Source: an uncultured Clostridia bacterium
Lineage (GTDB): Bacteria > Bacillota > Clostridia > JAAYHZ01
DNA length: 64,000 bases
Direction: 5' to 3'
Assembly (NCBI GenBank): GCA_937894465.1
Contig: CALCRE010000047.1
Span: forward strand, 2,208 to 66,207
This document shows positions 20,401 through 43,459 of the stretch, piece by piece. Position numbers and translations under genes: made by a program. Position 1 is the stretch's first letter, and every line of letters begins with the position of its first letter. The notes under the pieces were generated by a model. The model was not told the DNA's origin and did not search any database. It saw only the letters and a list, made by a program, of their open reading frames with translations.

Positions 20401-22131
20401 ATCGATGAAAACTTGAATGTGATCTCTTCCAAAAAGGAACTACAAGGAGCAACATTGATTGTAACACCGGATCAAACTTTAGATTATGATACCGAATACA
20501 CATTGACCATACCCAAAGAAGGGCTAGGTGATGCATACGGCCATTTAATGGAAGGTGATTATATCGTAAGCTTTACAACCGGTTCGTACTATCCTGAAGT
20601 TGTGTTTACTTATCCGGGAGAGGGTATGGAAAATGCAGCAATCGATACTCAAATCCGTTTGAAGTTCAATCAGACCATAAAAGAGGGCTTGCGTTTCTCA
20701 GACATTACCGGTCTTCAATCCGATACCGGAACCATTATTATGACTCCTCAGATACAAGGAGAATACTTGGTCTTGAACTATGATGGAAAGCTTCGTGAAA
20801 GCACGGACTACACAGTCGTGATTCCGGCCGGTGCGGTGCAAAATGATTATGAATTCGCATTGCAAGAAGATTATGTTCTGGTATTCACCACCGGTGTACT
20901 CCTGGATGGAGATGAAGAAGATGCCGATAGCGGAAGTATTGAGTTGAATATCAATCCGAATGAAACCATGGCATGTATGGACATCAACGGTATACAAAGG
21001 TTCATACCTATCATCAGAAACGGTAATCGTGGGGTGATAAAGATAGGAGCCATAACGGCTGATCTATTTAAAGATGACCAAAACACAGAGCTGACTGTCC
21101 CTGCTTTACCGGGGATGAATGCCTATACAGTTGAAATTCCCGCAGAACATTTAAGACAAGGGGAGTCATCCTTAACGATCCGTACTTCAATTGGCAGTAT
21201 TGTTATTCCCGCTGATCTTTTGTCCAATCAAGGCGATGTCAATGGAAAAATTGTGACAATCTCCATTACGTCTGTTGACAAATCCACACTACCGGAAGAT
21301 GTGAGAATAGCTGTTGGAAACAGACCGGTTCTGCAAATTAATGTGGCGATAGACGGAGAAACTATTTCCTGGAACAACCCGAATGCCCCTGTGATGATAT
21401 CTATTCCGTATGTACCAACACAAGAAGAATTGGGTGACCCGGAAAGCATTGTTGTTTGGTACATTGACTCCAATGATCAGATCATAGTGGTTCCTAACGG
21501 AAATTACAATCCTGATGCAAAAGCAGTGACATGTATCACGACTCATTTAAGCATTTTTGCCGTAGCATATGATGATGTAGTGTTTGAAGATGTACCAAAG
21601 GATTCATGGTATGAAAAGGCTGTAAAATATATTGCGGCAAGAGGAATCACCAAAGGTACAGGAGAAGGCTTGTTCAGTCCCTTGAGCAAGCTCACCAGAG
21701 CACAGTTTATCACCATGATCATGAGAGCCTGTAATATACAACCGGATGCCGATCCGAAAGAAAACTTTAGTGATGCGGGAGATACTTGGTATACAGGGTA
21801 TCTAGCGGCGGCAAAGCGACTTGGTATATCTCAAGGGGTGGGAAACAACTTGTTTGCTCCGGGAAAAGATATAACCCGTCAAGAGATGTTTACTTTGTTG
21901 TATAACACTTTAAAAATTACAAAGCAGTTACCAGAGATCCAAGAAGGAAAACCGATTCGAACGTTGTCCGACTTCACAGATGAAGGACAAATCGATCTTT
22001 GGGCAAAGGAAGCCATGACCTTTTTAGTTGAAAGCGGCATCATCAAAGGAAGTGATGGAAAGCTGATACCGAAGGGATCGTCTATAAGAGCGGAAATGGC
22101 ACAAGTGCTGTATAATTTGTTGGCGAAGTAG
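11500..22131 (+). CDS. Giant (3543 aa) secreted, S-layer-anchored multidomain surface protein
   Basis: Signal peptide (MKMLKKITSIILASVMCFTSMS). N-terminal L-type (legume-like) lectin domain (GGFIFTLQP). Nine ~98-aa Ig-like repeats (SWxSxN...DGTVxRP). SbsA/Big_5-like Ig domains and a PKD-like domain (YEWNIDGK). Two CARDB-like domains ending E-x-N-E-x-NN. A C-terminus with three SLH domains (FEDVPKDSWYEKAVKYIAARGITKG, FSDAGDTWYTGYLAAAKRLGISQG, FTDEGQIDLWAKEAMTFLVESGIIKG). Confidence 0.85.
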   Translation: MKMLKKITSIILASVMCFTSMSDQLLGFTVTSTVYAEGSSATVNICYDNFADTTNLQVNGDMIENNILRFVNEGVPESIFTKDAIVLGENLSFSTAFSFKNLSPSEPAPQTKGGFIFTLQPIGNFVTTDDFQHNNISPAISIAFEFEYIDAFIPTAFSPSVKLESSSSTDFLIAQEAPPKLCSINMVTYINGDYANPISRHPLTTYYVTAEIAEYDHVWIGYDGVNKELEILYVDPSGKYTHITEPLDLVLPNEVYAGFMGSFGNAGNTNTINSWYFKDDLSIMDQGIVDADMAFLNLEMEQLEVDSIDNYTFPLCGHFGSTISWTSSNMGVVATDGTVNPPSIGEGNKTVILTAALSKGLQVRTTRPFMITVRVPDVVIVNADFEWLTDFIIKKNNDDLNHVVSNLNLPTLGNFGSVISWESNDTVILNWDGTVNRPAYNEVDKTVTLTAHITMNYYTLDKTFTVTVKAIEPTDEEKLNADASWLNLYMLNEDLSDVTSDLTLPDTGPSGSTISWASNNTTVLNADGTVARPAYTAGNVVVTLTATISKGVETTDLVFTVTVIKQAQTDVEAVSADAALLTDAVILNGNSALNNVMGHLTLPTLGANGSTISWTSNNTTVLNTDGTVTRPAYTAGNVVVTLTATISKGVETTDLVFTVTVIKQAQTDVEAVSADAALLTDAVILNGNSALNNVMGHLTLPTLGANGSTISWTSNNTTVLNTDGTVARPAYAAGNDVVSLTATISKGVETTDIVFTVTVIKQAQTDAEAVSADATLLTDNVILNGNSALNNVTGNLSLPTLGANGSTISWASNNTTVLNADGTVTRPTYTAGNIVVTLTATVSKGTETTDVVFTVTVIKQTQTDAEAVSADATLLTDDVILNGNSALNNVVNNLSLPTLGANGSTISWASDNTTVLNAGGIVTRPAYTAGNVVVTLTATVSKGVETTDVVFTVTVIKHEQTDAEAVSADAALLTDDVILNENSALDNVTGNLILPVLGANGSTISWESNNTTFLSNDGTVIRPSYTAGSKTVVITATIKKGVVTQTKSFGLTIKASDITDEERVSLDYAWLTKYNVLELNPSINSVEWNLSFPVAGPNNSVITWESDMLSVITNDGTVIRPEYGQGHKSVNVTATVTKGIFQRKAHYIYVVLQKPDLEAPMVVSSLPFNNGRALYDTKEITLVFNENIILGPAALSNPNTYGIKLQGTDTVLFRAAIENENKLIVSTTSGLSAGEYKLIIPAGTFVDKAGNQTKAYELIFMVSPKPGKLTVVSSTPKDLEVDVDVNIREILIQFDSTNLVRNTSSIPIFLREKTTKISRSSSFSVTGDTVTLRIPAPLSSGLVYEIVIPGGIVKDSNNNINEEKIIQFRTKYSGAKPVLVKTKPVNGQMNVSLNDVSIELEFSQNIDFLTLTNYITYLVDDQGNKYNFMPYKIGGSSKRWKLTTPHLSHYKQGTTYTLVGPYGTLENPDLLEFNVQFTTASNRMQVVNKSPKSWLGNPLDQKVEIEYNYPVEIGPTYWDVTFKDSKGNPVDFIREEIGKKVTFTPISLLSPSETYTVTIPEGAYKGESGYINDGIQFDFRTVQKFDISINNLIIPDQGFVDKILLFDAAEAGNIARRAGSNVSSYEWNIDGKVIGNQKYVYYTFISPGIHKLTLTIIDDKNIPYVFEKDITVNHLTDIRMTLKDNGYSPRGVFLADQNSKGIVYKLQLTQEGKTVYGEKIDVELYYKGVLQRRYNKITSKFGDDTYLFEFKPEFGAFGNYELVFTYQGVGYKEVIREPVVVSSSQATMTQVFSFRLRDIFAWNSPEYFEEAQNLQVIINGEKMLAYKKWDSQRGYYVYQINKMMLANTYYQMEIPSFKIDRWIKSIYVGKEGSDPTVISGWPLRPGGIQEISVNYDESSVLYPFTEFYFEGVSAKLVFDVEADWKEAEPGYYEIKSMNDRFNIKVRSNGSGVQKIVLDPGLELKPGENLVIRMVSKQGAASGWIYCPYFVVVPQPEILGQKLSISLQSGEYAVNWPNEFTGALGSKISMFDGVPVLDGGNFGIGGGMPTFEGDLEGDWANPEINLSFGASGGYGEKSKKKADTKYKKVKKVTTVGYEFSIEIEGAFTLTYDSQSKEWDMYGFYIMLIGDFIKEWSKGYDMMGVGFSAGVGVGGEVAGGLKVDMATDDTQYSGFIRITPRAFLRVSGDFLVASVNGYLNGWIPVEVHFPTGYIGADIQISAKIHAKALLWSKTIYEKNLLSEHWDNGKPQVVIKSLKNFKMFEDPDTFQLMSRDYINRQSVWAAQDSGLVSVMAVGFNENPDTELMMENMYPDAELMMVENQDELWLVWTDDNAERDDANRTQLRFAVQSNGTWSKPVWIHDDKTADFAPVAASTGNGVLMAWQNIGKHITEEDGLSEMLKNSEISVTQTGYTSTGVAPNIITLTSDDAVDHSPHIAAHGDQALLVWTKSTGLTTVLNAGEDQPGKDDHRLYYSAWNNGVWSTPEAISSVSETVMDAHLVMEGETGLLLYTLDMDQDLYTTEDREVFVRLYERNAWSDAIRLSNNSYHDCAPKAVFVESNWFITWLQEGNILYRYGLDGDIKDEERLQNIQGDYQIAVVPGEKPLVSLVHIKPGEDMTTGAHAFFYDLTLEQWGNSVALSDLENHVKAISLVSTQDGNINVAYTQADIITEANPIVIEGVKQFVETPAIGNQTDMKLLTYTPVHDVALSKEDGILLSTEFPLPEILTSVYVTVQNQGDYAEYVKVRIYDGDPNEQGVLIGETPMQLLPAHTSKELEIPWLVDTEEKATYHLYATIEPQFGVQEINVGNNTIDLAFSTADIAITDLIYENMVADEYVVTVTVTNTGGKTLDGATVNLESDVDGTVLETKSLGVLAPGQRTVVTYMISSEGLPLGTDGKVNLLVRVNPSEGITEDFTENNMRRFSLKPTAITVTGVSPGPKDKNVALTSNITLSFNMNVSEGTGYDRIRLIDENLNVISSKKELQGATLIVTPDQTLDYDTEYTLTIPKEGLGDAYGHLMEGDYIVSFTTGSYYPEVVFTYPGEGMENAAIDTQIRLKFNQTIKEGLRFSDITGLQSDTGTIIMTPQIQGEYLVLNYDGKLRESTDYTVVIPAGAVQNDYEFALQEDYVLVFTTGVLLDGDEEDADSGSIELNINPNETMACMDINGIQRFIPIIRNGNRGVIKIGAITADLFKDDQNTELTVPALPGMNAYTVEIPAEHLRQGESSLTIRTSIGSIVIPADLLSNQGDVNGKIVTISITSVDKSTLPEDVRIAVGNRPVLQINVAIDGETISWNNPNAPVMISIPYVPTQEELGDPESIVVWYIDSNDQIIVVPNGNYNPDAKAVTCITTHLSIFAVAYDDVVFEDVPKDSWYEKAVKYIAARGITKGTGEGLFSPLSKLTRAQFITMIMRACNIQPDADPKENFSDAGDTWYTGYLAAAKRLGISQGVGNNLFAPGKDITRQEMFTLLYNTLKITKQLPEIQEGKPIRTLSDFTDEGQIDLWAKEAMTFLVESGIIKGSDGKLIPKGSSIRAEMAQVLYNLLAK
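13030..14793 (+). repeat. Six tandem 294-bp intragenic repeat units (98-aa Ig-like modules); units 2 and 3 are nearly identical
   Basis: The GG(G/A)AG(T/C)ACCATCAGCTGG anchor recurs at 13030, 13324, 13618, 13912, 14206 and 14500, exactly 294 bp apart. The region 13324-13911 is a near-perfect duplicate. More diverged copies flank it within 12355-14980. Confidence 0.85.
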
Positions 22132-25521: not shown

Positions 25522-26061
25522 GTGGCAAAAGATATGAAGAAACCTAGAAAGATGTTAAGTGACTGGGATGCTCCCTATATTCAATCACTGGTAAAGTTAA
25601 TTGAAACACAAAGCAAATTAACACTGGCAAATTGGGCAATTGATTATTCTGAACAAGTTATGTTACCCATATGGTATAAACATTACCCGGATGATTTGCG
25701 TCCTCGAAATGCAATGGAAGATGCACGTTTGTGGTTAAAAGGCGTCATCAAACTGCCCCAAGCTAAAAAAACTATATTAGAATGCCATGCTGCAGCACGA
25801 GAAAGTGAAACGACTCCTGCTGCACAAGCTGCCGCAAGAGCGATCGGTCAATCTGCTTCCACCATACATTCGGCAAGACATTGTATCGGTCTTGCGCTGT
25901 ACGGAGCGGTGGCAGTAACATACGACATCCTTGGTGTCAATATAAAGAAGGAACAATTTCAATTATATACTGAAGAGGAATGCTCAAGAATGCTGAAAGC
26001 TTTGCAATCTGTGGCTGTAGAGAACGAGCCCAATCCTGCAAAAATCGATTGGAAGTGTTAA
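25522..26061 (+). CDS. Hypothetical all-alpha protein, Ala-rich (possible immunity-protein-like fold)
   Basis: 179-aa ORF with an AARESETTPAAQAAARAIGQSASTIHSARH helical low-complexity segment. No catalytic motif recognised. The family call is tentative. Confidence 0.45.
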   Translation: MAKDMKKPRKMLSDWDAPYIQSLVKLIETQSKLTLANWAIDYSEQVMLPIWYKHYPDDLRPRNAMEDARLWLKGVIKLPQAKKTILECHAAARESETTPAAQAAARAIGQSASTIHSARHCIGLALYGAVAVTYDILGVNIKKEQFQLYTEEECSRMLKALQSVAVENEPNPAKIDWKC

Positions 26062-26168
26062 CATAAAAACAAAAGAAAATAAAAGGTATCGCACGATATA
26101 TTGATTTAATACGTGCGATATGATATGATGATCGTATGATAATAAAACTAATCGTACGGGGTGATGTT

Positions 26169-26927
26169 ATGAATGATCAAAAGAGGAACAAAATCATTAC
26201 TGCAACGGAATTGAAGCGGAATTTGGGAAAGTACTTGGATTATGTCATTGACAACAATGAGGTAGTGATCTCTAAGAATGGAGAAAAGGCTGTTCGCATG
26301 ACTCCTTATTTGTCGGACTATTCAAGATATGAGTTGATGCAACTCAAAGAACAAGCATTAGATTATCAGTATGGGGGCAAAACAGTATCCTACGAGGAGT
26401 TCATGGAAATCTATGAAAAGAGTGAACTGAGGATGGAGTTTATTGATGGTCAGATCGTCATATTGGATTCCCCTAGTTTTAGGCATCAAGAAATATCCGG
26501 TCGTTTATTCATCATTTTCAGCCAGTTTCTAAAAAGCAAGAAATGCAAAGTTATTTTTGCACCCTTTGATGTTCATTTTTATAAGCCGGAAATCAAGGAT
26601 CCGGATGTTTGTCAGCCGGATTTATTGATTGCTTGTGATACCGATGAAAAAATCAATGAAAAAGGTCGTTATATGGGAACACCTTCGCTAGTGGTAGAAA
26701 TTCTTTCTCCTAGCACATGTTCAAAAGATATGGTAAAAAAGCTAAACACATATATGCTTTCAGGTGTAAAGGAATACTGGGTAATAGATCCGGAGCAAAA
26801 AACAATCATCATTTATGGTTTCAATAATGTGCAAATAGCAGGCTTTTTTATCTACAAAAATGATGAAACGGCAGCATCGAGTGCATTTGAGGGACTTGTA
26901 GCACCCTTGTCAGAAATATTTGGTTAA
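26169..26927 (+). CDS. Fusion protein: N-terminal Phd/YefM-type antitoxin-like domain plus C-terminal Uma2 (DUF820) PD-(D/E)xK endonuclease-like domain
   Basis: N-terminus ITATELKRNLGKYLDYVIDNNEVVISKNGEKAVRMTPY matches the Phd/YefM pattern. The C-terminus has Uma2 hallmarks (ELRMEFIDGQIVILDSP, QPDLLIACD, PSLVVEILSPST, EYWVIDPEQKTIIIY). Start at ATG 26169. Confidence 0.7.
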   Translation: MNDQKRNKIITATELKRNLGKYLDYVIDNNEVVISKNGEKAVRMTPYLSDYSRYELMQLKEQALDYQYGGKTVSYEEFMEIYEKSELRMEFIDGQIVILDSPSFRHQEISGRLFIIFSQFLKSKKCKVIFAPFDVHFYKPEIKDPDVCQPDLLIACDTDEKINEKGRYMGTPSLVVEILSPSTCSKDMVKKLNTYMLSGVKEYWVIDPEQKTIIIYGFNNVQIAGFFIYKNDETAASSAFEGLVAPLSEIFG

Positions 26928-30239: not shown

Positions 30240-31196
30240 ATGAAAACAAAAAAGAATCAAACACCACCGAGGTGGAAAAAAGTCGCTCCGATACTCATCT
30301 TATTTGTTCTGCTTTTTTTATTAGGCTATCTTTTACCTATGTTAGTGGATCCCATCTTTTCGGTAGGAGAGATGGATCCGGGTGAGTTAGTTTTTATGCT
30401 TGCAGGAATATTGATTACAGTGTATGTCGCTACTGTTATACATATCATATTGCATGAAGCCGGTCATTTGATTTTTGGAAGGCTGACCGGATATCAATTT
30501 TCATCCTTTCGAATCGGTAGCTTTATGTGGGTAAAACAAGAAGGCAAGATCAAATTTCGGAAGATGTCCATCGCCGGAACAGGTGGACAATGCTTGATGG
30601 TGCCACCTCGGATGAAGAAAGGAAAAATACCTTTTGTGCTCTATAATTTAGGAGGCGTCATTGTAAATATGATCGTTGCAGCACTGTTTGTCGCTTTGTT
30701 TTTCATTACACGAAGTTTACCGATTCTATCAACTTTCTTTTTTATCATGGCTGGTATGGGTGTTCTGTTAGCTGCCTTCAATGGTATTCCCATGCAATTC
30801 AATACCATTACAAATGACGGTCACAATGCGATTTCCCTTGGAAAGGATCCCCAAGCGTTGCGTTCTTTTTGGATTCAAATGAAGATAAACGAACAAGTGG
30901 TTAAGGGGAAACGTCTAAAGGAAATGCCGGAGGAATGGTTTGTCATTCCAAATGCTGAAGCAATGAAAAACAGTATGGTAGCGGCTATTGGTGTGTTTGC
31001 TTGCAATGGAATGATGGATTTAATGGAAATTGAGAAAGCAGACAAGCAAATGGCGGAGCTTTTGAAAATGGACACCGGTATGGTTGGGGTTCATCGTAAA
31101 TTACTTATTGCAGATCGGATCTATTGTATTTTGACCATCGAAGGCCACCTGGAGAATATAGATGACTTACTAGATAAGGAACAAAAAAATTTATGA
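30240..31196 (+). CDS. Polytopic membrane protein with an HExxH motif (HEAGHLIFGRL); putative intramembrane zinc metalloprotease, M50/DUF3267-like
   Basis: The HEAGH sits in the second TM helix, with several further TM segments and a C-terminal soluble helical region. Confidence 0.5.
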   Translation: MKTKKNQTPPRWKKVAPILILFVLLFLLGYLLPMLVDPIFSVGEMDPGELVFMLAGILITVYVATVIHIILHEAGHLIFGRLTGYQFSSFRIGSFMWVKQEGKIKFRKMSIAGTGGQCLMVPPRMKKGKIPFVLYNLGGVIVNMIVAALFVALFFITRSLPILSTFFFIMAGMGVLLAAFNGIPMQFNTITNDGHNAISLGKDPQALRSFWIQMKINEQVVKGKRLKEMPEEWFVIPNAEAMKNSMVAAIGVFACNGMMDLMEIEKADKQMAELLKMDTGMVGVHRKLLIADRIYCILTIEGHLENIDDLLDKEQKNL

Positions 31197-34472: not shown

Positions 34473-34574
34473 TTTTTAATTACTTTATTAAATTTCTTTT
34501 ATATTAGCCGAATATCTTTATTTATTCTCTGTCTATATAAGTGAAAGTGATCAATCTTAGACGAGGAGGAGATC

Positions 34575-35132
34575 ATGGAGGACCGGGAAATCATCAATCT
34601 GTACTGGTCGCGTAATGAAGCGGCGATCGGTCAGACCCATACAAAATATGGACGTTTACTACACAGCATATCCTATAACATACTGTCCAATCACGAAGAC
34701 TCTCAAGAGTGTGTCAATGACACATACCAAAAAGCTTGGAATGCAATGCCACCCCAAAGGCCTGATTCCTTAACGGCTTTTTTAGGACGTATCGTGAGAA
34801 ACCTGTCAATCAATTGTTGGCATAAAGCTCGAGCACAAAAACGTTCTAATGGAGCCAAAGAGTTGCTTTTGGAATTAGCCGAATGTGTTCCTGATAAAAA
34901 TAATGTGGAAAAGGTAATTGAAGCAAGGGAATTATCGGAATTTATCAGTGATTGGCTGTGCACTCTGTCACAGGAAAACCGTGTGTTGTTTCTACGTCGT
35001 TATTGGTATGGGGTTCCGCTGAAACGTCTGGCTCATGAATATGGAACGACTCCTAGTAAATTAGGGTCAAGGATGTACCGCTTAAGGCAGGATCTAAAAG
35101 CCACATTGGAAAAGGAAGGTGTGTCGATATGA
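34575..35132 (+). CDS. ECF-type sigma-70 family RNA polymerase sigma factor
   Basis: Region-2-like DTYQKAWNAM...FLGRIVRNLSINCWHK and region-4-like VPLKRLAHEYGTTPSKLGSRMYRLRQDL. Stop overlaps the next gene (ATGA). Confidence 0.75.
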   Translation: MEDREIINLYWSRNEAAIGQTHTKYGRLLHSISYNILSNHEDSQECVNDTYQKAWNAMPPQRPDSLTAFLGRIVRNLSINCWHKARAQKRSNGAKELLLELAECVPDKNNVEKVIEARELSEFISDWLCTLSQENRVLFLRRYWYGVPLKRLAHEYGTTPSKLGSRMYRLRQDLKATLEKEGVSI

Positions 35133-36520
35133 AAGAAAAAAAGATATTTGATGCTGTCACGGATGTTCGTGACGAATTAATTGAAGAAGCAAAGATCACC
35201 ATGTATAAGAAGAAAAAACCCATGTGGGTTATATGGGTGGCGATTGCGGCTTGTGCTGCAATAGTAATGGGTATAGGCTTGCTGATTCCGGGGACTGGAA
35301 ACAATAATCCTAATTCGGGAATGCTCCTGGAGGTAATGTATCCGAAGGCATATGCCTTTGAAGATTCTGACACAAAGAGAGCTATCAGGGAGCAAAACCC
35401 CGTTGATGAAAACTTCATCAACTCCATCAAGGAATTTTCTTATAAGACAGGTTCCGCTATTTTATCCGACAATGGAAAAAACAAAAATTACTCACCTTTA
35501 TCACTTTTTTATGCATTAGGGCTTGCAACCTCCGGTGCAAAAGGCGATACACAAGCTGAGCTATTGGATTTTCTGGGGGTACCGGATATAGAAACTTTAA
35601 CCCTGCAAAGTAGAAATTTGTATCGGACTCTTTACCGAGATAATGAAATCGGAAAGCTGAAAATTGCTAACTCCATTTGGATGGAAAATGAGCTAAACGG
35701 TAAACCCATTGTGTTTAAAGAGGATTTTGTAAAGCAAGCAGTGGAGAACTTCTATGCCAGCTCCCATAGTGTGGATTTTGCCAAGGAAGAAACGGGAAAA
35801 GCCATGGCCAAATGGATTCAAAATCAAACAAACGGTACATTGTCACCCACAATTGAGGTAGACCCGGAGCAAATACTGACCATAATCAATACAGTATACT
35901 TTTATGATCAATGGGTTGATCGGTTTGACAAACAAAAAACCGCCCAAAGCATATTTTACTTGGCAAACGGTGACAAAGAAAAAGCTGATTTTATGAACCA
36001 AACGTTTTCGTCGGCAGGCTTTTCAAGAGGAGAAGGTTTTACACGTGCCGGTTTACAACTTAAAAATGCAAGCCAAATGATATTTATTCTTCCGGATGCA
36101 GGAGTTTCACCTTATGATCTACTCTCGTCTTCCGAACAGATGAAGGAGATCTTTGAAGGAGGAGAAAGATTGAACGGTGAGGTGGTATGGAAAATACCCA
36201 AGTTCAACTTTGGTTCCGAGTTTTCTCTGAAGGATACGCTAGGAAGTTTGGGTATTGTGTCGGCTTTTCGACCGGACGCAGACTTTACCGGCATTACGGA
36301 CCACACGGCATTCATTTCGAATGTCCGTCAAGAAACCCACATCGCCATTGATGAAATCGGTGTGGAAGCTTCTGCTTTTACCCGTATAGAGTACGCAGGA
36401 GCTGCACTTCCTAACGGCAGAGCTGATATGATTCTCAATAGCCCCTTTATATATGGTATAACGGCGCAAAATGGCACCTTGTTATTTGTGGGTGTATGTG
36501 AAAATCCGGCGGAAAACTAA
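35129..36520 (+). CDS. Membrane-anchored serpin (serine protease inhibitor) with an anti-sigma-like N-terminal segment
   Basis: Short cytoplasmic N-terminus (TDVRDELIEEA) plus one TM (WVIWVAIAACAAIVMGIGLLI). Serpin N-terminal core NKNYSPLSLFYALGLATSGAKGDTQAEL. Hinge EIGVEASAFT resembling inhibitory serpins, and C-terminal serpin signature MILNSPFIYGI...LLFVGVCENP. Confidence 0.75.
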   Translation: MKEKKIFDAVTDVRDELIEEAKITMYKKKKPMWVIWVAIAACAAIVMGIGLLIPGTGNNNPNSGMLLEVMYPKAYAFEDSDTKRAIREQNPVDENFINSIKEFSYKTGSAILSDNGKNKNYSPLSLFYALGLATSGAKGDTQAELLDFLGVPDIETLTLQSRNLYRTLYRDNEIGKLKIANSIWMENELNGKPIVFKEDFVKQAVENFYASSHSVDFAKEETGKAMAKWIQNQTNGTLSPTIEVDPEQILTIINTVYFYDQWVDRFDKQKTAQSIFYLANGDKEKADFMNQTFSSAGFSRGEGFTRAGLQLKNASQMIFILPDAGVSPYDLLSSSEQMKEIFEGGERLNGEVVWKIPKFNFGSEFSLKDTLGSLGIVSAFRPDADFTGITDHTAFISNVRQETHIAIDEIGVEASAFTRIEYAGAALPNGRADMILNSPFIYGITAQNGTLLFVGVCENPAEN

Positions 36521-36548: not shown

Positions 36549-37469
36549 ATGACGAACCTTTTCACATTTGAATTAAACGGCTGGAATTCCTGGAGCAAGG
36601 TGTTTCAATCAATCAAGGATTTCCAATCATTGATCAAGTATATATATGAAAGCAATTTCCTACCTCTTTCTCAAATTGAACAATGCACACCGGGTACCAA
36701 TGCGGTTTTCAAGGTTGGTTCCACTGTTATAAAGATATTTGCACCTAAAGAGTCCGGGTTTGATTCTGATTCGGATTATGTGACTGAACTTTTCGGCATG
36801 GAAAGGGCAAACAAGTTGGGAATATCAACACCAAAATTGTTGGCAAAGGGAATTGTAGAGGATCAATATGTTTTCCCTTATCTCATCATGGAATATATTC
36901 CGGGTGGCTCTTTCGGAATGCTTGAAAGTCAATGGACGGATGATGAGAAGACAAACTTTGCAAAGCAGTTACACTGCATAACGGACTTGATGAATACTTC
37001 CTGTGAGCCGTTTAATTATTTGGATGTTATCGATCGGGCACTATATTGTCAACGTTGGAGCAAATTTCCACGAAGTTTTCAACAAGAGCGTAGAAAATAT
37101 TTGGAGCAGTATAAGGGGTCGTCACAGGTTTATGTGCATGGGGACTTAAATCCGGACAATGTGCTTGTTGATCATAACGGAAAGCTTTATATCATCGACT
37201 TTGCCGATGCAGTGATTGCTCCTCCTGAATATGAGTTTGCAGCTATTGTATGTGAACTGTTTTGCTTTGAAAAACCTTATATGATCGGATATTTCGGAGA
37301 ATACAATATTGAAGAGCTTGCTGAAAAGTGCTTCAACGCCATACTGATGCATGACTTTGGTGCAGGGATCATCGAATGCAATTTAGGCCGGATCAATGAG
37401 ATCGCATCCCTTTCAGTGTTAAAAGAAAGGTTATGTATTGCGATTAAAAACAACAAAGGGATTGAATAA
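36549..37469 (+). CDS. Phosphotransferase-family kinase (APH/choline-kinase fold)
   Basis: Brenner motif HGDLNPDNVLVD and IIDFADA. Confidence 0.6.
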   Translation: MTNLFTFELNGWNSWSKVFQSIKDFQSLIKYIYESNFLPLSQIEQCTPGTNAVFKVGSTVIKIFAPKESGFDSDSDYVTELFGMERANKLGISTPKLLAKGIVEDQYVFPYLIMEYIPGGSFGMLESQWTDDEKTNFAKQLHCITDLMNTSCEPFNYLDVIDRALYCQRWSKFPRSFQQERRKYLEQYKGSSQVYVHGDLNPDNVLVDHNGKLYIIDFADAVIAPPEYEFAAIVCELFCFEKPYMIGYFGEYNIEELAEKCFNAILMHDFGAGIIECNLGRINEIASLSVLKERLCIAIKNNKGIE

Positions 37470-38694: not shown

Positions 38695-39003
38695 ACACGA
38701 ACAAAATGGCGTTGATAAGGAGAAGTACATGCTTAACCTGAAGCAAAGAGAGAAGATGGCCGGTGCAAATCTTCGTGAAGGTAGTATGGAAGTAGCCTTT
38801 GAGCTGTGAACCGAAAGGATGGTATCTTAGTAGGCTTCAACGGAACTTTCCACTGTTAAAAGGAAAACAATATCGGATATTTTTAGTTCCCGTATTGGCA
38901 TGAGTGCAGATTAAAGAGATCTGAATTTAGGTGGTACCACGGACGCATACAGTTCGCCCTAAGCAAAATGTTAACAAAGCTTAAGGCGGACTTTTGTTTT
39001 GTG
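38695..39003 (+). promoter_or_regulatory. T-box riboswitch leader controlling valS
   Basis: Stem I region with AGAGA and GUGA motifs. Conserved T-box sequence AATTTAGGTGGTACCACGG at 38925-38943. Intrinsic terminator (CGCCCTAAGC...GCTTAAGGCG then TTTTGTTTTGTGTT) at 38955-39003. GAAGUAG/GUA triplets in Stem I are compatible with a valine specifier, but the specifier is not resolved. Confidence 0.8.
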
Positions 39004-39028
39004 TTCGGAATTTCAAGGAGGTATTACT

Positions 39029-41407
39029 ATGAAGAACTATGATTACAAACAAGTGGAAAAGCAAATGCAGAGTTTTTGGGAGGAAAACGAAATTTATCGT
39101 TTTGACTTGGATAGCCGGAAGGAAATCTACTCCATTGACACACCGCCGCCCACAGTCAGTGGAAGCTTGCATATCGGGCATATTTTTTCCTATGCCCAAG
39201 CGGAAATGATTGCACGCTTTAAACGTATGCAAGGATATAACGTTTTTTATCCTTTTGGATTTGATGACAATGGACTACCAACAGAAAGACTCGTAGAAAG
39301 GGAAGAGGGTATTGTAGCAAAGGATTTTCAAAGAAGTGAATTCATAAAAAAATGTATTGCAACAACGGCAAAGTATGAAGAGGAATTTAAAAGTTTGTGG
39401 CAATCCCTTGGGTTTTCTGTTGACTGGTCTTATCAATATGAAACAATAAACCCTATGGTTCAGCGGATATCGCAAAAATCATTTATTCGCCTTCTAAAGG
39501 ATGGAAAAGCCTATATGAAAGAGTCTCCGGTTTTATGGTGCACAGAATGCCAAACCTCTATAGCCCAAGCCGAATTAGAGACGATTGAAAAAAAGACTAC
39601 ATTCAATTACCTGATATTTAAGTGCGGTGAAGATGATTTGTTGATCGCCACAACCAGACCGGAGCTTTTGTATGGTTGTGTTTGCTTGTTCGTCCATCCG
39701 GAGGATGACAGATACAAAAAATATATCGGCAAAAATGCTACTGTTCCCTTATATAATTATGAAATTCCCGTATTATCAGATCATAAAGTTGACCTATGTA
39801 AAGGAACCGGTATTGTGATGTGTGCCACTTTTGGTGACAGCACGGATATGGAATGGTATGAAACCCATCAACTTCCCTATAGAAAAGTACTATTACCGAA
39901 TGGTTTGATAGATAGCGATGTTCCGCTTATTGGGGACTTAAGTGTCTTGGATGCTAGAAAGCGGATCATCGAATTACTATCAGAAACCGGTTTGATGACA
40001 GATTCAAAGATGATTACTCATACCGTTTCTGTTCATGAACGTTGCGGAAGAGAAACGGAGATTATTCCCTCAAAACAGTGGTACATTGAACTTTTGTCTC
40101 AAAAACAGGAATTTTTACAAGCTGCCGATAAAATAAACTGGTATCCGGAATACATGAAAAACAGGTATACTACTTGGGTTGAAAATCTTAAGTGGGATTG
40201 GTGTATATCTCGACAACGCTATTTTGGTGTTCCATTTCCCATTTGGTACTGTAAAAGTTGTGGAAAGGTTATGGCTGCAAGTGAAGATCGCTTGCCTGTT
40301 AATCCACTTGAAACAAACCCGGAAAAACCTTGTCATTGTGGATGTAATGAGTTTTTTCCTGAGCATGCTGTTTTCGACACTTGGGCTACTTCATCGGTAA
40401 CACCGCAAATCAACGGGAAATGGGGCGAAGAAAATGACTTAACGGAAAAGCTATTGCCCATGAGTTTAAGAACCCAAGCACACGAGATTATCCGAACATG
40501 GGCCTTCTATACAATTGTAAAAAGCTTGTACCATACAGGGCAAATTCCTTGGAAGGATATAATGGTTTGTGGTTTTGTTCTGGCAAAGAAAGGCGAGAAG
40601 ATCAGTAAATCGAAAGGAAATTCAGCATTATCACCAAAGGAACTGATTGAAAACCATTCGGCTGACGTAATAAGGTATTGGGCTGCCAATGCCAAGCTTG
40701 GAACAGACACCTTTTTCTCAATGGATGAGCTGAGCACGGCAAAAAGATTCATTACAAAGCTATGGAATGCATCGAAGTTTGCAATATCTCATTTACAGGA
40801 TTTTGACAATACGGAGGACATGGAGTTGATGCCCGTAGACAGGTGGATTATACAGCGATGTAAGCAAACTACCCGTGCAGCAGAAGAACTGCTTAACCTA
40901 TATGAAATAGGTGCTGCAAGGCACAAGATCGACGAGTTTTTCTGGAAAGACTTATGTGATTATTATTTCGAGATTGTTAAAGAGCGATTGTACCAGCCTG
41001 AAAAGCACGGGATTAAACAACGAAAGTCAGCTCAACATGCTTTGTATTATTGTGTCCTTCAAGTGTTGAAGGTATATGCCATTTATATACCCCATATCAC
41101 TGAATATATATATCAGGAGTTTTTTAAACAGCATGAGAACAGTGTTTCATTACACATATTAAATTGGGAAACGGAAAAAGTAACGGATCACAAGTTCATC
41201 ATGTTTGGCGAAAAATTAAAAGAGGTTATTGGGGATACAAGAAAATACAAGGCAGAGAACGCATTATCCATGAAAACCGAGATGAAAGAGGTTGTGATCC
41301 TTACAGATGAGAAACTAATAGGGCTGTTTGAGCAAAGCGTGAATGATATAAAAGCATGTTGCCAAGCGAGAGAAGTGATCATTCAAGTAAACCGTATGGA
41401 TGCGTAA
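39029..41407 (+). CDS. valS: Valine--tRNA ligase, short (archaeal-type) form lacking the C-terminal coiled-coil
   Basis: HIGH motif PPPTVSGSLHIGH and KMSKS variant KISKSKGN. The N-terminus YDYKQVEKQMQSFWEEN parallels bacterial ValRS. Zinc-knuckle cysteines are present (WCTECQT, CKSCGK). The length of 793 aa is below that of typical bacterial ValRS, which is about 880 aa. Start at ATG 39029 with AAGGAGG 7 nt upstream. An IleRS or LeuRS identity is not fully excluded. Confidence 0.65.
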   Translation: MKNYDYKQVEKQMQSFWEENEIYRFDLDSRKEIYSIDTPPPTVSGSLHIGHIFSYAQAEMIARFKRMQGYNVFYPFGFDDNGLPTERLVEREEGIVAKDFQRSEFIKKCIATTAKYEEEFKSLWQSLGFSVDWSYQYETINPMVQRISQKSFIRLLKDGKAYMKESPVLWCTECQTSIAQAELETIEKKTTFNYLIFKCGEDDLLIATTRPELLYGCVCLFVHPEDDRYKKYIGKNATVPLYNYEIPVLSDHKVDLCKGTGIVMCATFGDSTDMEWYETHQLPYRKVLLPNGLIDSDVPLIGDLSVLDARKRIIELLSETGLMTDSKMITHTVSVHERCGRETEIIPSKQWYIELLSQKQEFLQAADKINWYPEYMKNRYTTWVENLKWDWCISRQRYFGVPFPIWYCKSCGKVMAASEDRLPVNPLETNPEKPCHCGCNEFFPEHAVFDTWATSSVTPQINGKWGEENDLTEKLLPMSLRTQAHEIIRTWAFYTIVKSLYHTGQIPWKDIMVCGFVLAKKGEKISKSKGNSALSPKELIENHSADVIRYWAANAKLGTDTFFSMDELSTAKRFITKLWNASKFAISHLQDFDNTEDMELMPVDRWIIQRCKQTTRAAEELLNLYEIGAARHKIDEFFWKDLCDYYFEIVKERLYQPEKHGIKQRKSAQHALYYCVLQVLKVYAIYIPHITEYIYQEFFKQHENSVSLHILNWETEKVTDHKFIMFGEKLKEVIGDTRKYKAENALSMKTEMKEVVILTDEKLIGLFEQSVNDIKACCQAREVIIQVNRMDA

Positions 41408-42084: not shown

Positions 42085-42561
42085 GTGACCGAGCTCGAGC
42101 AAATATACAATCGATACTTTAAAGATGTTTACTTGTTTACACTGGGGTTATCAAAAGATAAACATGTAGCAGAGGATATTACCTCTGAAACATTTATGAA
42201 GGCCATAAAAGCCATTGACAGTTTCAATGGAGATTGTGATATCCGTGTGTGGCTGTGCCAAATAGCAAAAAACGCTTACATATCGTATGTAAGAAAGAAT
42301 AAAAAGCAAGTGAATGTGGAATCTATACCGGAACAAAAAGACGATATGGATGTAGAAAGAATAGTCTTTTCATCTGTGGAAGCTATGAAAGTTCATAAGA
42401 TTCTACATAAACTTGAAGAGCCCTATAAAGAAGTATTTTCCCTTCGTGTTTTCGGGGAATTAAGCTTCAAACAGATCGCTGATGTATTTGGTAAAACGGA
42501 TAACTGGGCTTGTGTTACATTTCACCGGGCAAAGGGAATGATTGTAAAAGAAATGAGGTAG
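42085..42561 (+). CDS. ECF-type sigma factor (SigV/SigM-like)
   Basis: Region 2 DIRVWLCQIAKNAYISYVRK and region 4 FKQIADVFGKTDNWACVTFHRAKGMI. GTG start with AGGAGGTGA ribosome-binding site. Confidence 0.75.
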   Translation: MTELEQIYNRYFKDVYLFTLGLSKDKHVAEDITSETFMKAIKAIDSFNGDCDIRVWLCQIAKNAYISYVRKNKKQVNVESIPEQKDDMDVERIVFSSVEAMKVHKILHKLEEPYKEVFSLRVFGELSFKQIADVFGKTDNWACVTFHRAKGMIVKEMR

Positions 42562-42565
42562 ATGA

Positions 42566-43459
42566 ATGAAAGTAACTTGTGAAGTTATAAGAGATTTATT
42601 GCCGTTGTATCAGGAAAATATGATCAGTGATGACTCGAAGGCTTTAGTGGATGATCATATAGCAGGTTGTGATGCATGTAAGAAAGTGCTGGATTACATG
42701 AAAACGGAAACGGTGCTCATGGACACTAATGTGACTCCGTTGTTAAAAATAAAGACCAAGCTACGTAGGAAGAAAGTAATTACGGTCTTGTTTTCTGTGA
42801 TGCTTTCTCTTGCTGTTGCTGTTTTGTTTGTTGCTTATCTGACTGCACCGGAATATACATCCTATCGCGATTCAAAAATATCTATAACAGAAGTGGACAA
42901 TGGGATGGTTGTTGCCGTTTTTAGCGACCAAGTGTCAGGATACGATATTAGTAAATACCAATCGGATGAATATGACGGTTATGTGGTTCACATGACTACT
43001 TGGGATAGTGTTTGGAACAGGATTTTTGGCAGGTCCCGTGTCAACAGCGTTGTTTTAAATCCTGACGGTGAAGCGGTTACAGCAGTTTACTATTATCAAA
43101 CCGATAGTCAAGTTGACAGATTAATCTATGGTTTTGATATAAATCCGAGCGGTGGAATTCTCACCTTGCCTAGATTAGTTTTATCCTATTACTTTCTCCT
43201 GGCATTAGGTTTTGCCGGATTCTGTGCGCTATTGGTTTTTATATTCCGTAAGAACGAGATAGCGAGAAATCTGTTGACCAAGGTTTTGCTTGTACCGATC
43301 TCTTATCTTTTAGCTCATCTATTGATAAAAGGATTTGATTCAACATCCTATTTGGCACTACGAGACTTTCTAGCAATATTATTAATAACCATACCACTAT
43401 ACATCGCTTTTCTTGCAGCAATGACCTACATCAAGGAATATAAGAAAAAGAAAGCATAA
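42566..43459 (+). CDS. Anti-sigma factor with zf-HC2 zinc finger, single TM and extracytoplasmic domain
   Basis: N-terminal CEVIRDLLPLYQENMISDDSKALVDDHIAGCDACKK (H-x3-C-x2-C), a TM at about aa 75-95, and two further C-terminal TMs. Confidence 0.7.
   Translation: MKVTCEVIRDLLPLYQENMISDDSKALVDDHIAGCDACKKVLDYMKTETVLMDTNVTPLLKIKTKLRRKKVITVLFSVMLSLAVAVLFVAYLTAPEYTSYRDSKISITEVDNGMVVAVFSDQVSGYDISKYQSDEYDGYVVHMTTWDSVWNRIFGRSRVNSVVLNPDGEAVTAVYYYQTDSQVDRLIYGFDINPSGGILTLPRLVLSYYFLLALGFAGFCALLVFIFRKNEIARNLLTKVLLVPISYLLAHLLIKGFDSTSYLALRDFLAILLITIPLYIAFLAAMTYIKEYKKKKA

Follow-up and report, generated by a model that had tools for sequence, protein, structure and literature searches.

The two genes at 34575..35132 and 35129..36520 on the forward strand of the window (the whole stretch of 64,000 nucleotides that was analysed) probably form a self-contained, autoregulated ECF sigma/anti-sigma cassette, with a serpin as the extracytoplasmic domain of the anti-sigma factor. 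We assign a probability of roughly 0.55 to this reading. The upstream gene encodes a sigma-70 family sigma factor of the ECF type (group 4; 185 aa), and the downstream gene encodes a serpin-bearing membrane protein (463 aa), which was recognized from its open reading frame and its Pfam Serpin match. The latter protein consists of a cytoplasmic N-terminus of 32 aa, one transmembrane (TM) helix (residues 33–53), a linker, and a complete serpin. An earlier note on this DNA had described a short cytoplasmic N-terminus, one TM helix, and a complete serpin domain; this architecture was borne out, while the cytoplasmic part turned out to be about 32 aa in length, not 45 aa.

The mutual arrangement of the two genes agrees exactly with another claim of that note, namely, an ECF sigma gene and a partner gene that overlap by 4 nt: the ATG of the serpin gene overlaps the TGA of the sigma gene (ATGA, 35129–35132). 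A ribosome-binding site (AGGAAGG, 35113–35119) lies within the end of the sigma gene and, together with the overlap, makes up a predicted translational-coupling junction (35113..35132, forward strand). The sigma gene is preceded by the ribosome-binding site GAGGAGG (34563..34569, forward strand), as read from the sequence. No terminator was found between the two genes, and abutting or overlapping sigma-partner junctions recur in the related loci. A database search for sigma-factor-adjacent serpins, which had been proposed earlier, revealed no fewer than 23 genomes and metagenome contigs in which the pair recurs with its junction unchanged: 18 genome loci selected by serpin similarity, the cultured organisms Cohnella sp. 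AR92 and Alkalicella caledoniensis, and three metagenome loci (L050, L051, and L063). The expectation that the pair is kept together in relatives was thus satisfied, widely in Clostridia and also in one Bacillus-class genome. That 23 or more independent loci conserve the pair and its junction shows that these are not due to chance. Among the compared loci, no conserved third gene (for a target protease or a site-2 protease) was found beside the pair, and thus the sigma gene and the serpin gene constitute the unit. A weak M50-like ORF occurs at 30240–31196 in the window, and its neighbourhood with the pair is not conserved. The window also contains a second ECF pair (42085–43459), whose partner has a canonical zf-HC2 domain.

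ECF autoregulatory promoters are located upstream of their own sigma genes and contain AA in the −35 element and GTC in the −10 element. A putative promoter with both of these characteristics was found at 34509..34540 on the forward strand, 35 nt upstream of the sigma ATG: the −35 element is CGAATAT (34509–34515), and after a 14-nt spacer, the −10 element is TGTCTATATAA (34530–34540). The pattern CGAATAT-N14-TGTCT was found with identical spacing in all of the 25 close-clade loci, where its distance to the sigma start is 28–40 nt (112 nt in L019). It occurs once in the 64-kb window, as compared with an expectation of 0.01 copies, and across 572 kb of loci, it occurs almost exclusively in front of sigma genes. 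With this one copy, the window offers no further candidates for the regulon. The fixed-spacing promoter before the sigma gene implies that the operon is autoregulated, as far as can be judged from sequence. The sigma factor itself matched TIGR02937 (E = 1.2e-16; score, 60.8 bits; cut-off, 42.9; residues 18–176 covered) and, above the cut-off, Pfam Sigma70_r2 (E = 1e-9); the match to Pfam r4_2 was weak (17.8 against a cut-off of 25.7). A homology search provided 3,526 homologues. The nearest solved sigma factor is CnrH (4cxf, E = 1.6e-4), which is a weak match, and no NCBIfam subfamily was reached. Among the group descriptions of the ECF classification 2.0, there was no group with a CGAATAT..TGTCT promoter. 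Taken together, these features strongly support a translationally coupled sigma factor and single-pass membrane protein with an ECF-type promoter ahead of them.

The predicted extracytoplasmic part of the partner protein (35327..36520, forward strand) is composed of a conserved N-terminal extension (aa 67–100; ..YPKAYAFED..NPVDE.F) and a serpin core (aa 100–460). The core matched Pfam Serpin (PF00079) with E = 9.9e-65, over residues 100–460 and profile positions 3–370 of 370, and the nearest solved relatives are conserpin, tengpin, and miropin. In the AlphaFold model, pLDDT exceeds 85 across residues of about 80–420, and Foldseek gave a TM-score of 0.90 against cleaved miropin. The serpin fold supposed in the earlier note is therefore upheld by the profile, the structure prediction, and the fold search. 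The hinge E-I-G-V-E-A-S-A-F-T and the signature NSPFIYGI, which had also been noticed, are located at residues 409–418 and 437–444, respectively. According to the hinge pattern ExGVEASAFT and the loop length, the reactive-centre loop (RCL) extends from P17 Glu409 to the s1C strand (aa 409–439; 36353..36445, forward strand). The hinge residues E409, G411, V412, A414, A416, and T418 are nearly invariant in 119 homologues, and 116 of them have a loop of 32 residues between P17 and the RPF of s1C. The P′ side of the loop is three residues longer than that in alpha1-antitrypsin. Locating P1 had been left as a task for structure prediction; since a P17–P1 distance of 17 residues is required in inhibitory serpins, and since Met358 of alpha1-antitrypsin aligns with Ala425, the predicted scissile bond is P1 Ala425/P1′ Ala426 (36401–36406, forward strand). 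Tyr422 and Arg431 were considered as P1 and rejected, because the 17-residue rule and the alignments with alpha1-antitrypsin and conserpin favour Ala425. With reference to the shutter and breach residues of alpha1-antitrypsin (Ser53, Ser56, Asn186, Trp194, His334, and Lys290), Ser122, Ser125, Asn254, Trp262, and Lys358 are kept, whereas Gln401 takes the place of His334. The AlphaFold model adopts the loop-inserted form, which is in line with inhibitory competence. There is strong support for a complete serpin in the ectodomain, one whose sequence has the typical features of inhibitors; it looks inhibitory, with Ala425 as P1.

The proposed sigma-binding peptide occupies aa 1–24 (MKEKKIFDAVTDVRDELIEEAKIT; 35129..35200, forward strand) and was delimited by its conservation and its association with sigma genes. 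It is an acidic peptide of about 24 residues, for which AlphaFold gives no structure in isolation. Neither Pfam, NCBIfam, nor PDB provided a match to it, and no known anti-sigma domain was found to match. Its motif consensus is MKEKK[IL]FDAITxVxDELIEEA. When conservation is expressed as the mean share of the most frequent residue, the 24-residue motif scores 0.79, the serpin core 0.75, and the TM helix 0.54. The idea that the N-terminal conservation comes from a nucleotide-level constraint of the gene overlap was rejected, because the overlap is merely 4 nt. The earlier note had allowed that this segment might be a plain signal anchor; its conserved motif, which is sigma-associated and common to non-serpin partners, indicates that it is more than that. 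When loci were selected by the module, a sigma homologue abutted it in 14 of 15, and only three were serpins. The module heads unrelated ectodomains directly after homologous sigma factors: in P. thermosuccinogenes, it is found on an unrelated ectodomain of 504 aa at a syntenic site, where the flanking tRNA synthetase is 79% identical. Some partners of 64–69 aa, which are essentially the module alone, follow sigma genes on mobile elements. The module family, for which Pfam has no model, comprises 4,525 clusters, a number that is no measure of the serpin share, since the MNAKKFSD clade dominated the exhaustive search. A homology search with the module only returned short proteins only; this looks like a candidate-selection bias, and the result, which did help to reveal the module-only partners, is unfit for ectodomain counts. 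These observations strongly support the view that the N-terminal peptide of about 24 residues is a portable module tied to this sigma family. We infer that it binds the sigma factor and holds it at the membrane, as a minimal anti-sigma element that is not as long as the class I domains and has no sequence relationship to class II.

Class I anti-sigma domains (ASDI or ZAS) are three-helix bundles with a fourth helix, have a length of about 70–90 aa, and often carry an HxxxCxxC zinc motif. Here, the cytoplasmic part of about 32 aa is too short for such a classical domain, and no zf-HC2, RskA, or other anti-sigma Pfam match and no His/Cys motif was found in it. Class II anti-sigma factors form a two-helix clamp around the sigma factor (PMC6101532). 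Their sigma-binding elements, as in CnrY and NepR, are very short; CnrY is, moreover, a small single-pass membrane protein, and its partner is CnrH, the weakly matching nearest solved sigma factor described above. However, when the module was compared with solved chains, including those of class II, no sequence similarity was detected, and a two-helix clamp is doubtful, because the residues before the TM helix contain one stretch of about 20 residues, for which a single helix is possible. CnrY also differs in that it pairs with a periplasmic sensor, CnrX, whereas the sensor candidate is fused here.

The module is followed by a Lys-rich stop-transfer segment (aa 25–32) and the single TM helix (aa 33–53), together at 35201..35287 on the forward strand. 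Hydrophobicity peaks at residues 33–53, just after KKKK, and AlphaFold places a helix at 33–51; the KKKK before the TM helix, together with the positive-inside rule, indicates that the N-terminus is cytoplasmic. About eight residues into the helix lies A40-A41-C42 (35246–35254), which does not vary in either of the two module clades. RseP cleaves RseA at Ala108|Cys109, and site-2 proteases have low sequence specificity (PMC10024687). The Ala-Ala-Cys in the module proteins matches the local sequence of that site, which is a resemblance in sequence only; likewise, the single-pass anti-sigma factors of the RseA/RseP and RsiW/RasP systems have small residues in the TM helix. A variable and probably disordered juxtamembrane linker follows (aa 54–66; 35288..35326, forward strand), with the lowest conservation in the serpin protein (0.36) and a pLDDT below 50 in AlphaFold; it is longer by 20–40 residues in L004, L008, L020, and L024. 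It is a candidate region for site-1 cleavage.

These elements suggest how the cassette might work. The N-terminal peptide would bind the sigma factor and keep it at the membrane, while the surface serpin, with Ala or Ser at P1 and Tyr at P4, would trap elastase- or subtilisin-type serine proteases outside the cell. At a high protease load, the ectodomain would be removed, either through consumption of the serpin by covalent complex formation and loop insertion or through a cut in the exposed linker. A site-2 protease would then cut within the TM helix, for which the invariant Ala-Ala|Cys is a possible site, and free the sigma factor, which would re-induce the operon and replace the spent serpin. 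Output (an inhibitor) and input (a protease) would thus correspond. The same logic is known from BlaR1/MecR1, membrane signal transducers whose extracellular sensor is a homologue of the resistance protein and undergoes covalent, irreversible modification by the detected threat. The output there is different: a zinc-protease domain cleaves a repressor, and no sigma factor is involved, so that the analogy is one of logic only. In function, the nearest counterpart of the proposed mechanism is RsiV, sigma-V's receptor-type anti-sigma factor and a lysozyme receptor as well: lysozyme binds to the ectodomain, site-1 cleavage follows, and then RasP carries out site-2 cleavage (PMC9044953). In RsiV/sigma-V of Bacillus subtilis, Clostridioides difficile, and Enterococcus faecalis, a single-pass anti-sigma factor likewise comes directly after an autoregulated ECF sigma factor, and the ectodomain binds the enzyme defended against. 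However, RsiV has a classical cytoplasmic anti-sigma domain, to which the peptide of about 24 aa in the serpin protein shows no similarity. The ectodomain of RsiV is of the DUF4179 type and binds lysozyme non-covalently, whereas the serpin would react covalently and irreversibly and, unlike RsiV, would itself be a resistance factor. The fullest form of the proposal, in which the serpin is a suicide-substrate sensor whose capture of a protease triggers intramembrane proteolysis and sigma release, and in which the module represents a minimal anti-sigma class of more than 4,500 clusters serving as a universal adaptor in Firmicutes, is one that we put forward tentatively.

The anti-sigma function may also be real without the serpin being the sensor. 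The serpin would then be a constitutively displayed inhibitor, release would be brought about by envelope stress or turnover, and the feedback would fix the surface level of the protein. The RCL is nearly identical in the sigma-linked proteins and in the sigma-less lipoprotein relatives, and the serpin thus shows no sensor-specific adaptation. The absence of a conserved partner protease gene beside the pair points in the same direction, and since the module works with many unrelated ectodomains, or even with almost none, release need not hinge on ectodomain chemistry. On the other hand, interchangeable sensors would be expected to show such a variety of ectodomains on one module. In characterized single-pass anti-sigma factors such as RsiV, it is the ectodomain that governs site-1 cleavage (PMC9044953), and irreversible consumption by a ligand makes a domain an obvious trigger for release. 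We therefore regard a serpin without a sensory role as rather unlikely.

The reading of the serpin protein as an anti-sigma factor depends on its relationship with the sigma gene, which was examined in the loci picked by serpin similarity alone. Among these loci, 18 have both the motif and the sigma gene, two have the motif only, none has the sigma gene only, and 18 have neither (Fisher p = 5.7e-9). The two exceptions (L013 and L029) have retained the motif with neither a sigma gene nor the promoter adjacent to it. In the sigma-less serpins of L011, L012, L015, L017, and L043, which are nested separately among the sigma-linked serpins, the motif is deleted or scrambled. Their separate nesting indicates that the sigma gene was lost several times independently and that the motif then decayed, while the anchor and the serpin were kept. 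An explanation that dispenses with the anti-sigma function is that the serpin is merely a co-transcribed effector, i.e., a member of the regulon whose N-terminal peptide serves in targeting, sorting, or stability, with the sigma factor controlled in another way. The shortness of the peptide, its lack of a match to known anti-sigma domains, and its retention in L013 and L029 would fit this explanation. However, none of the 18 motif-less serpins has a sigma gene, while nearly all of the module-selected loci do; the decay of the motif after sigma loss, with the TM anchor and the serpin persisting, and the use of ordinary lipoprotein signals or plain TM anchors by the sigma-less relatives are also at variance with it. 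The 4-nt overlap at the +1 position is, furthermore, a typical sigma/anti-sigma arrangement. A pure effector role is accordingly judged to be improbable. The comparative evidence supports the anti-sigma reading of the serpin protein, which is adjacent to the sigma gene, overlaps it, and shows conserved co-occurrence with it.

By sequence and fold, the closest characterized serpins are tengpin (Thermoanaerobacter tengcongensis), miropin, the siropins, and the Bifidobacterium serpin (group T). Tengpin and miropin are protease inhibitors, the N-terminal extension of tengpin packs on the serpin body and stabilizes the native state, and membrane-anchored prokaryotic serpins are a recognized class (PMC8233489). 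The YPKAYAF..NPVD extension found here sits at the position equivalent to the tengpin extension. For group T serpins, no link to a sigma factor has been described, whereas the present serpin is sigma-linked. That this serpin is a non-inhibitory binding or sensor domain for a non-protease ligand, like ovalbumin or the hormone carriers, is highly improbable: an invariant Gln (Gln401) stands in for the shutter His334, P9 is an unusual aromatic residue (Phe/Tyr), and AlphaFold gave the loop-inserted and not the native form, but P17 Glu, P15 Gly, and the small residues at P14, P12, P10, and P8 fit an inhibitory hinge, the strict conservation of the RCL length is a requirement of the inhibitory mechanism, the nearest characterized relatives are inhibitors, and P9 is an odd-numbered position, which is solvent-facing in the inserted strand of serpins.

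The literature was searched for serpins in connection with anti-sigma, ECF, or other sigma factors, with Clostridia, and for protease-inhibitor domains, and nothing relevant was found. The terms "serpin" and "PF00079" are absent from the main text and nine supplementary files of the ECF classification 2.0; a phylogeny of the serpin superfamily never mentions sigma factors or operons, and a paper on C. thermocellum has the cellulosomal serpins Cthe_0190 and Cthe_0191 merely in an expression table. Serpins are known as soluble or anchored inhibitors, and ECF anti-sigma factors sense lysozyme, peptides, metals, misfolded porins, and polysaccharides. To our knowledge, serpins have not been connected with transcriptional signalling in any organism, and we know of no ECF anti-sigma factor that senses proteases through an inhibitor domain. 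We rate the predicted serpin-tipped anti-sigma factor, of which no earlier description was found, as a variation on the sigma/anti-sigma theme.

The serpin pair suggests a previously undescribed way in which bacteria may sense or buffer proteases outside the cell. The hypothesis is directly testable, since Alkalicella caledoniensis and Cohnella sp. AR92 are cultured hosts. The wider result may matter more: a portable module, occurring in thousands of clusters, lies outside Pfam and the reference ECF classification. It would define a minimal class of anti-sigma factors and would provide a simple rule for finding uncharacterized sensor domains, and its small size makes it a possible compact part for synthetic sigma/anti-sigma switches. 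If the proposed mechanism is true, the cassette would be the first serpin-based transmembrane signalling device, a "protease alarm" that re-makes its own inhibitor. In protease-rich anaerobic habitats, such as digesters and guts, the circuit would then gauge proteolytic attack by the consumption of a decoy and restock that decoy.

The earlier note had described a gene for an ECF sigma factor that overlaps by 4 nt with a gene for a membrane-tethered serpin, and this architecture was borne out. Both ORFs lie on the + strand, at 34575-35132 (185 aa) and 35129-36520 (463 aa) of the window; the sigma stop codon and the serpin start codon overlap as ATGA, and the RBS of the serpin gene (AGGAAGG, +) is located inside the 3′ end of the sigma gene. 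The upstream product was identified as an ECF sigma factor (TIGR02937, E=1.2e-16, over the cut-off; also Pfam Sigma70_r2), and residues 100-460 of the downstream product cover the entire Pfam Serpin model (E=9.9e-65), so that the domain is complete as claimed; conserpin, tengpin, and miropin are its nearest solved relatives. The sole strongly hydrophobic stretch of the serpin protein spans residues 33-53, preceded by four lysines, and AlphaFold places a helix over residues 33-51 and predicts the serpin core with confidence (pLDDT >85). Therefore, the N-terminus is placed inside and the serpin outside, in agreement with the topology proposed earlier. An extracytoplasmic, inhibitory-type serpin on a single-pass membrane protein is strongly supported.

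In a genome scan with the serpin as the query, 46 loci were found across Clostridia, 18 of which have a gene for a sigma (56-72% identity) ending exactly at the serpin start. The pair was also found, with the same 4-nt overlap, in Cohnella sp. AR92, a cultured member of the class Bacilli, and in Alkalicella caledoniensis (complete genome), and it occurs in three metagenome loci: the search for sigma-adjacent serpins in relatives thus returned a retained pair. No third gene is conserved beside it among the related loci; therefore, the unit consists of two genes. An APH-family phosphotransferase gene (36549-37469, +) begins 28 nt past the serpin stop codon, and because no terminator-like site was found between them, it may be co-transcribed with the pair in this genome; elsewhere, the gene is not a conserved downstream neighbor of the pair. 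A 318-aa ORF at 30240-31196 (+), 3.4 kb upstream of the sigma gene, weakly matches the site-2 protease family Peptidase_M50, scoring just below the cut-off (26.5 against 27.2 bits), and is likewise not conserved beside the pair elsewhere. Other genes of the window (all +) encode a 3,543-aa protein (11500-22131) with at least nine aBig_2 and four Big_5 Ig-like domains and C-terminal SLH domains, which is a cell-surface, S-layer-anchored protein, an Imm5-like immunity protein (25522-26061), and a 263-aa protein with PhdYeFM antitoxin and Uma2 restriction-endonuclease-like domains (26136-26927).

The element CGAATAT-N14-TGTCT(A/T)TA was found upstream of the sigma genes, with spacing invariant in 25/25 close-clade loci, two of which have non-serpin partners. 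Its distance to the downstream sigma ATG is 28-40 nt at all of these loci but one (L019; 112 nt). The copy at 34509-34534 (CGAATAT-N14-TGTCT) is the only one in the window, as compared with 0.01 expected; in 572 kb of loci the element occurs almost exclusively before sigma genes, and it is absent at sigma-less serpins. A -10 that contains GTC, as in this element, is a typical ECF promoter trait; GTCT at -10 has been described for ECF02, for example (ECF classification supplement). Its conservation ahead of the sigma genes implies, at the level of sequence, that the two-gene operon would be positively autoregulated. An autoregulated, translationally coupled two-gene cassette is strongly supported. 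One decayed cassette was seen (L023:4869-5978), where the promoter is followed by the first 25 codons of the sigma gene, which run directly into a truncated serpin that begins at about residue 138.

The first 24 residues of the serpin protein are strikingly conserved among the homologues (MKEKK[IL]FDAIT[DN][VI]xDELIEEAK). For the sigma-linked members, conservation was expressed as the frequency of the commonest residue, which averages 0.79 in this motif, 0.75 in the serpin core, 0.54 in the TM helix, and 0.36 in the juxtamembrane linker. When loci picked by serpin similarity alone were tabulated, 18 had the motif and an adjacent sigma, two had the motif only, none had a sigma without the motif, and 18 had neither (Fisher p=5.7e-9). 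The N-terminal segment is not the plain anchor that the earlier note had considered: it is better conserved than the TM helix and co-occurs with an adjacent sigma. The serpins that have no adjacent sigma form two groups: the first is an outgroup clade whose members carry lipoprotein signal peptides, and the second comprises single lineages nested among the sigma-linked serpins (L011, L012, L015, L017, and L043), in which the motif is deleted or scrambled and the TM anchor and serpin are intact. Such a pattern would be predicted if selection acted on the motif only while the sigma is present.

The motif and TM helix, together referred to as the module, are also found with other ectodomains. In the window, which is part of a Clostridiales MAG, the class-I tRNA synthetase at 38999-41407 is 79% identical to the counterpart flanking a Pseudoclostridium thermosuccinogenes locus (L048:4001-6069; JBAIZC010000013.1), where the gene for a 61% identical sigma at the syntenic site likewise overlaps by 4 nt with the next gene, whose 504-aa product begins MKEKKIFDAITEVRDEYIEEARTAKLKK...WRKWTAIAAC. 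Its ectodomain is unrelated to the serpin and has no Pfam match, and it seems that the sensor domain was exchanged in place here. When metagenomes were scanned with only the module as the query, 15 loci were recovered; a sigma homologue abuts the module ORF in 14 of them, the other (L055) being without upstream DNA. Only three of the 15 carry serpins, and the remaining ectodomains (184-333 aa) have no Pfam match. A distant clade (MNAKKFSDAMSELDTKYVDEA...), very abundant in human-gut metagenomes, includes partners of 64-69 aa, essentially the module alone (helix and TM), directly after an ECF sigma; such partners occur on mobile elements (L065:1944-2695 and L066:1944-2710) carrying a serine recombinase, TnpW, and a MobA/MobL relaxase. 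An exhaustive profile search yielded 4,525 representative clusters (50% identity) at E<=1e-3 and 384 at E<=1e-10, nearly all with the module at residue 1 and with mostly unannotated ectodomains. No Pfam or NCBIfam model covers the module, and no solved anti-sigma domain matches it. Two members also contain Sigma70_r4 and could be sigma-module fusions or gene-call read-through. It is strongly supported that the presence and conservation of the cytoplasmic peptide depend on the neighboring sigma, and that the peptide is exchangeable between ectodomains.

The hinge was confirmed as canonical: E409-I-G-V-E-A-S-A-F-T418 has small residues at the buried P14, P12, P10, and P8 positions. The P17-to-s1C loop has a length of 32 residues in 116/119 homologues, and the reactive-centre loop (RCL) is nearly invariant (ExGVEASAFTQIDYxG[A/S]AxPEGRA). 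P1, whose location the earlier note had asked for, is predicted to be Ala425 (P1′, Ala426), since hinge counting and alignment to conserpin and alpha1-antitrypsin agree. P4 Tyr and P2 Gly are conserved; such a loop suits elastase-like or subtilisin-like, not trypsin-like, enzymes. The shutter and breach residues Ser53, Ser56, Asn186, Trp194, and Lys290 (alpha1-antitrypsin numbering) are kept. AlphaFold models the RCL as an inserted strand, and the best low-RMSD structural matches are cleaved miropin, cleaved antichymotrypsin, and latent tengpin; the model is compatible with a stressed-to-relaxed transition and says nothing on the native state.

The reading we prefer is an autoregulated ECF sigma with an anti-sigma factor bearing the serpin as its extracytoplasmic domain; the signalling step is hypothetical. 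The N-terminal peptide would sequester the sigma, and protease attack would remove the ectodomain, by serpin consumption or by a cut in the variable, disordered linker; loop insertion might be communicated to the membrane-proximal region. A site-2 protease would then cut the TM helix, whose only invariant residues, Ala40-Ala41-Cys42, resemble the site at which RseP cuts RseA, between Ala108 and Cys109 (PMC10024687), and the freed sigma would re-induce the operon. Sigma-linked and sigma-less forms share a practically identical RCL, which counts against this reading; the module could instead be the anti-sigma and the serpin only an effector, with another trigger releasing the sigma, an alternative we hold to be possible but rather unlikely. 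Also weighing against the preferred reading, two loci (L013:1177-2562 and L029:5001-6386) keep the motif intact (VRDE[LM][IL]EEV) with neither an adjacent sigma nor the promoter, their upstream genes being on the opposite strand. Each of these genomes may have the gene for a cognate sigma at another site. A serpin that is co-transcribed and no more, with a peptide acting independently of the sigma, is improbable: it is disfavored by the strict motif-sigma co-occurrence and by the way the motif decays once the sigma is lost. A non-inhibitory serpin seems very improbable, even though the shutter residue His334, highly conserved in serpins, is an invariant Gln (residue 401) in this bacterial family, which also counts against the preferred reading.

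Under the preferred reading, the pair would work in the manner of the receptor-type RsiV/sigma-V, the closest functional precedent: RsiV binds lysozyme directly, after which signal peptidase and RasP cut it (PMC9044953). The serpin protein does not qualify as a class I anti-sigma factor, as only about 32 of its residues are cytoplasmic and neither zf-HC2 nor RskA gave a match. In contrast, a second ECF pair in the window (sigma, 42085-42561, +, Sigma70_r2 and r4_2; anti-sigma, 42566-43459, +) has a canonical zf-HC2 (class I, zinc-finger) anti-sigma of 297 aa, 4 nt after its sigma. Class II anti-sigma factors (CnrY/NepR) form a two-helix clamp (PMC6101532), and CnrH is the top, albeit weak, PDB match of the sigma; however, the peptide is not similar to CnrY, and its length seems insufficient for a pair of helices. 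Membrane-anchored prokaryotic serpins are recognized in an account in which sigma factors are not mentioned (PMC8233489), the ECF classification and its supplements mention neither serpins nor the CGAATAT-N14-TGTCT promoter, and no prior description of a sigma-linked serpin was found in full-text literature searches. On these grounds, we regard the pair as a putative system of an ECF sigma and its anti-sigma in which the sensor or effector domain is new and the minimal anti-sigma element is non-canonical. The coupling would surprise specialists in serpins and in sigma factors alike; the module family is large and without annotation, and the cultured hosts make the sigma-serpin hypothesis testable.
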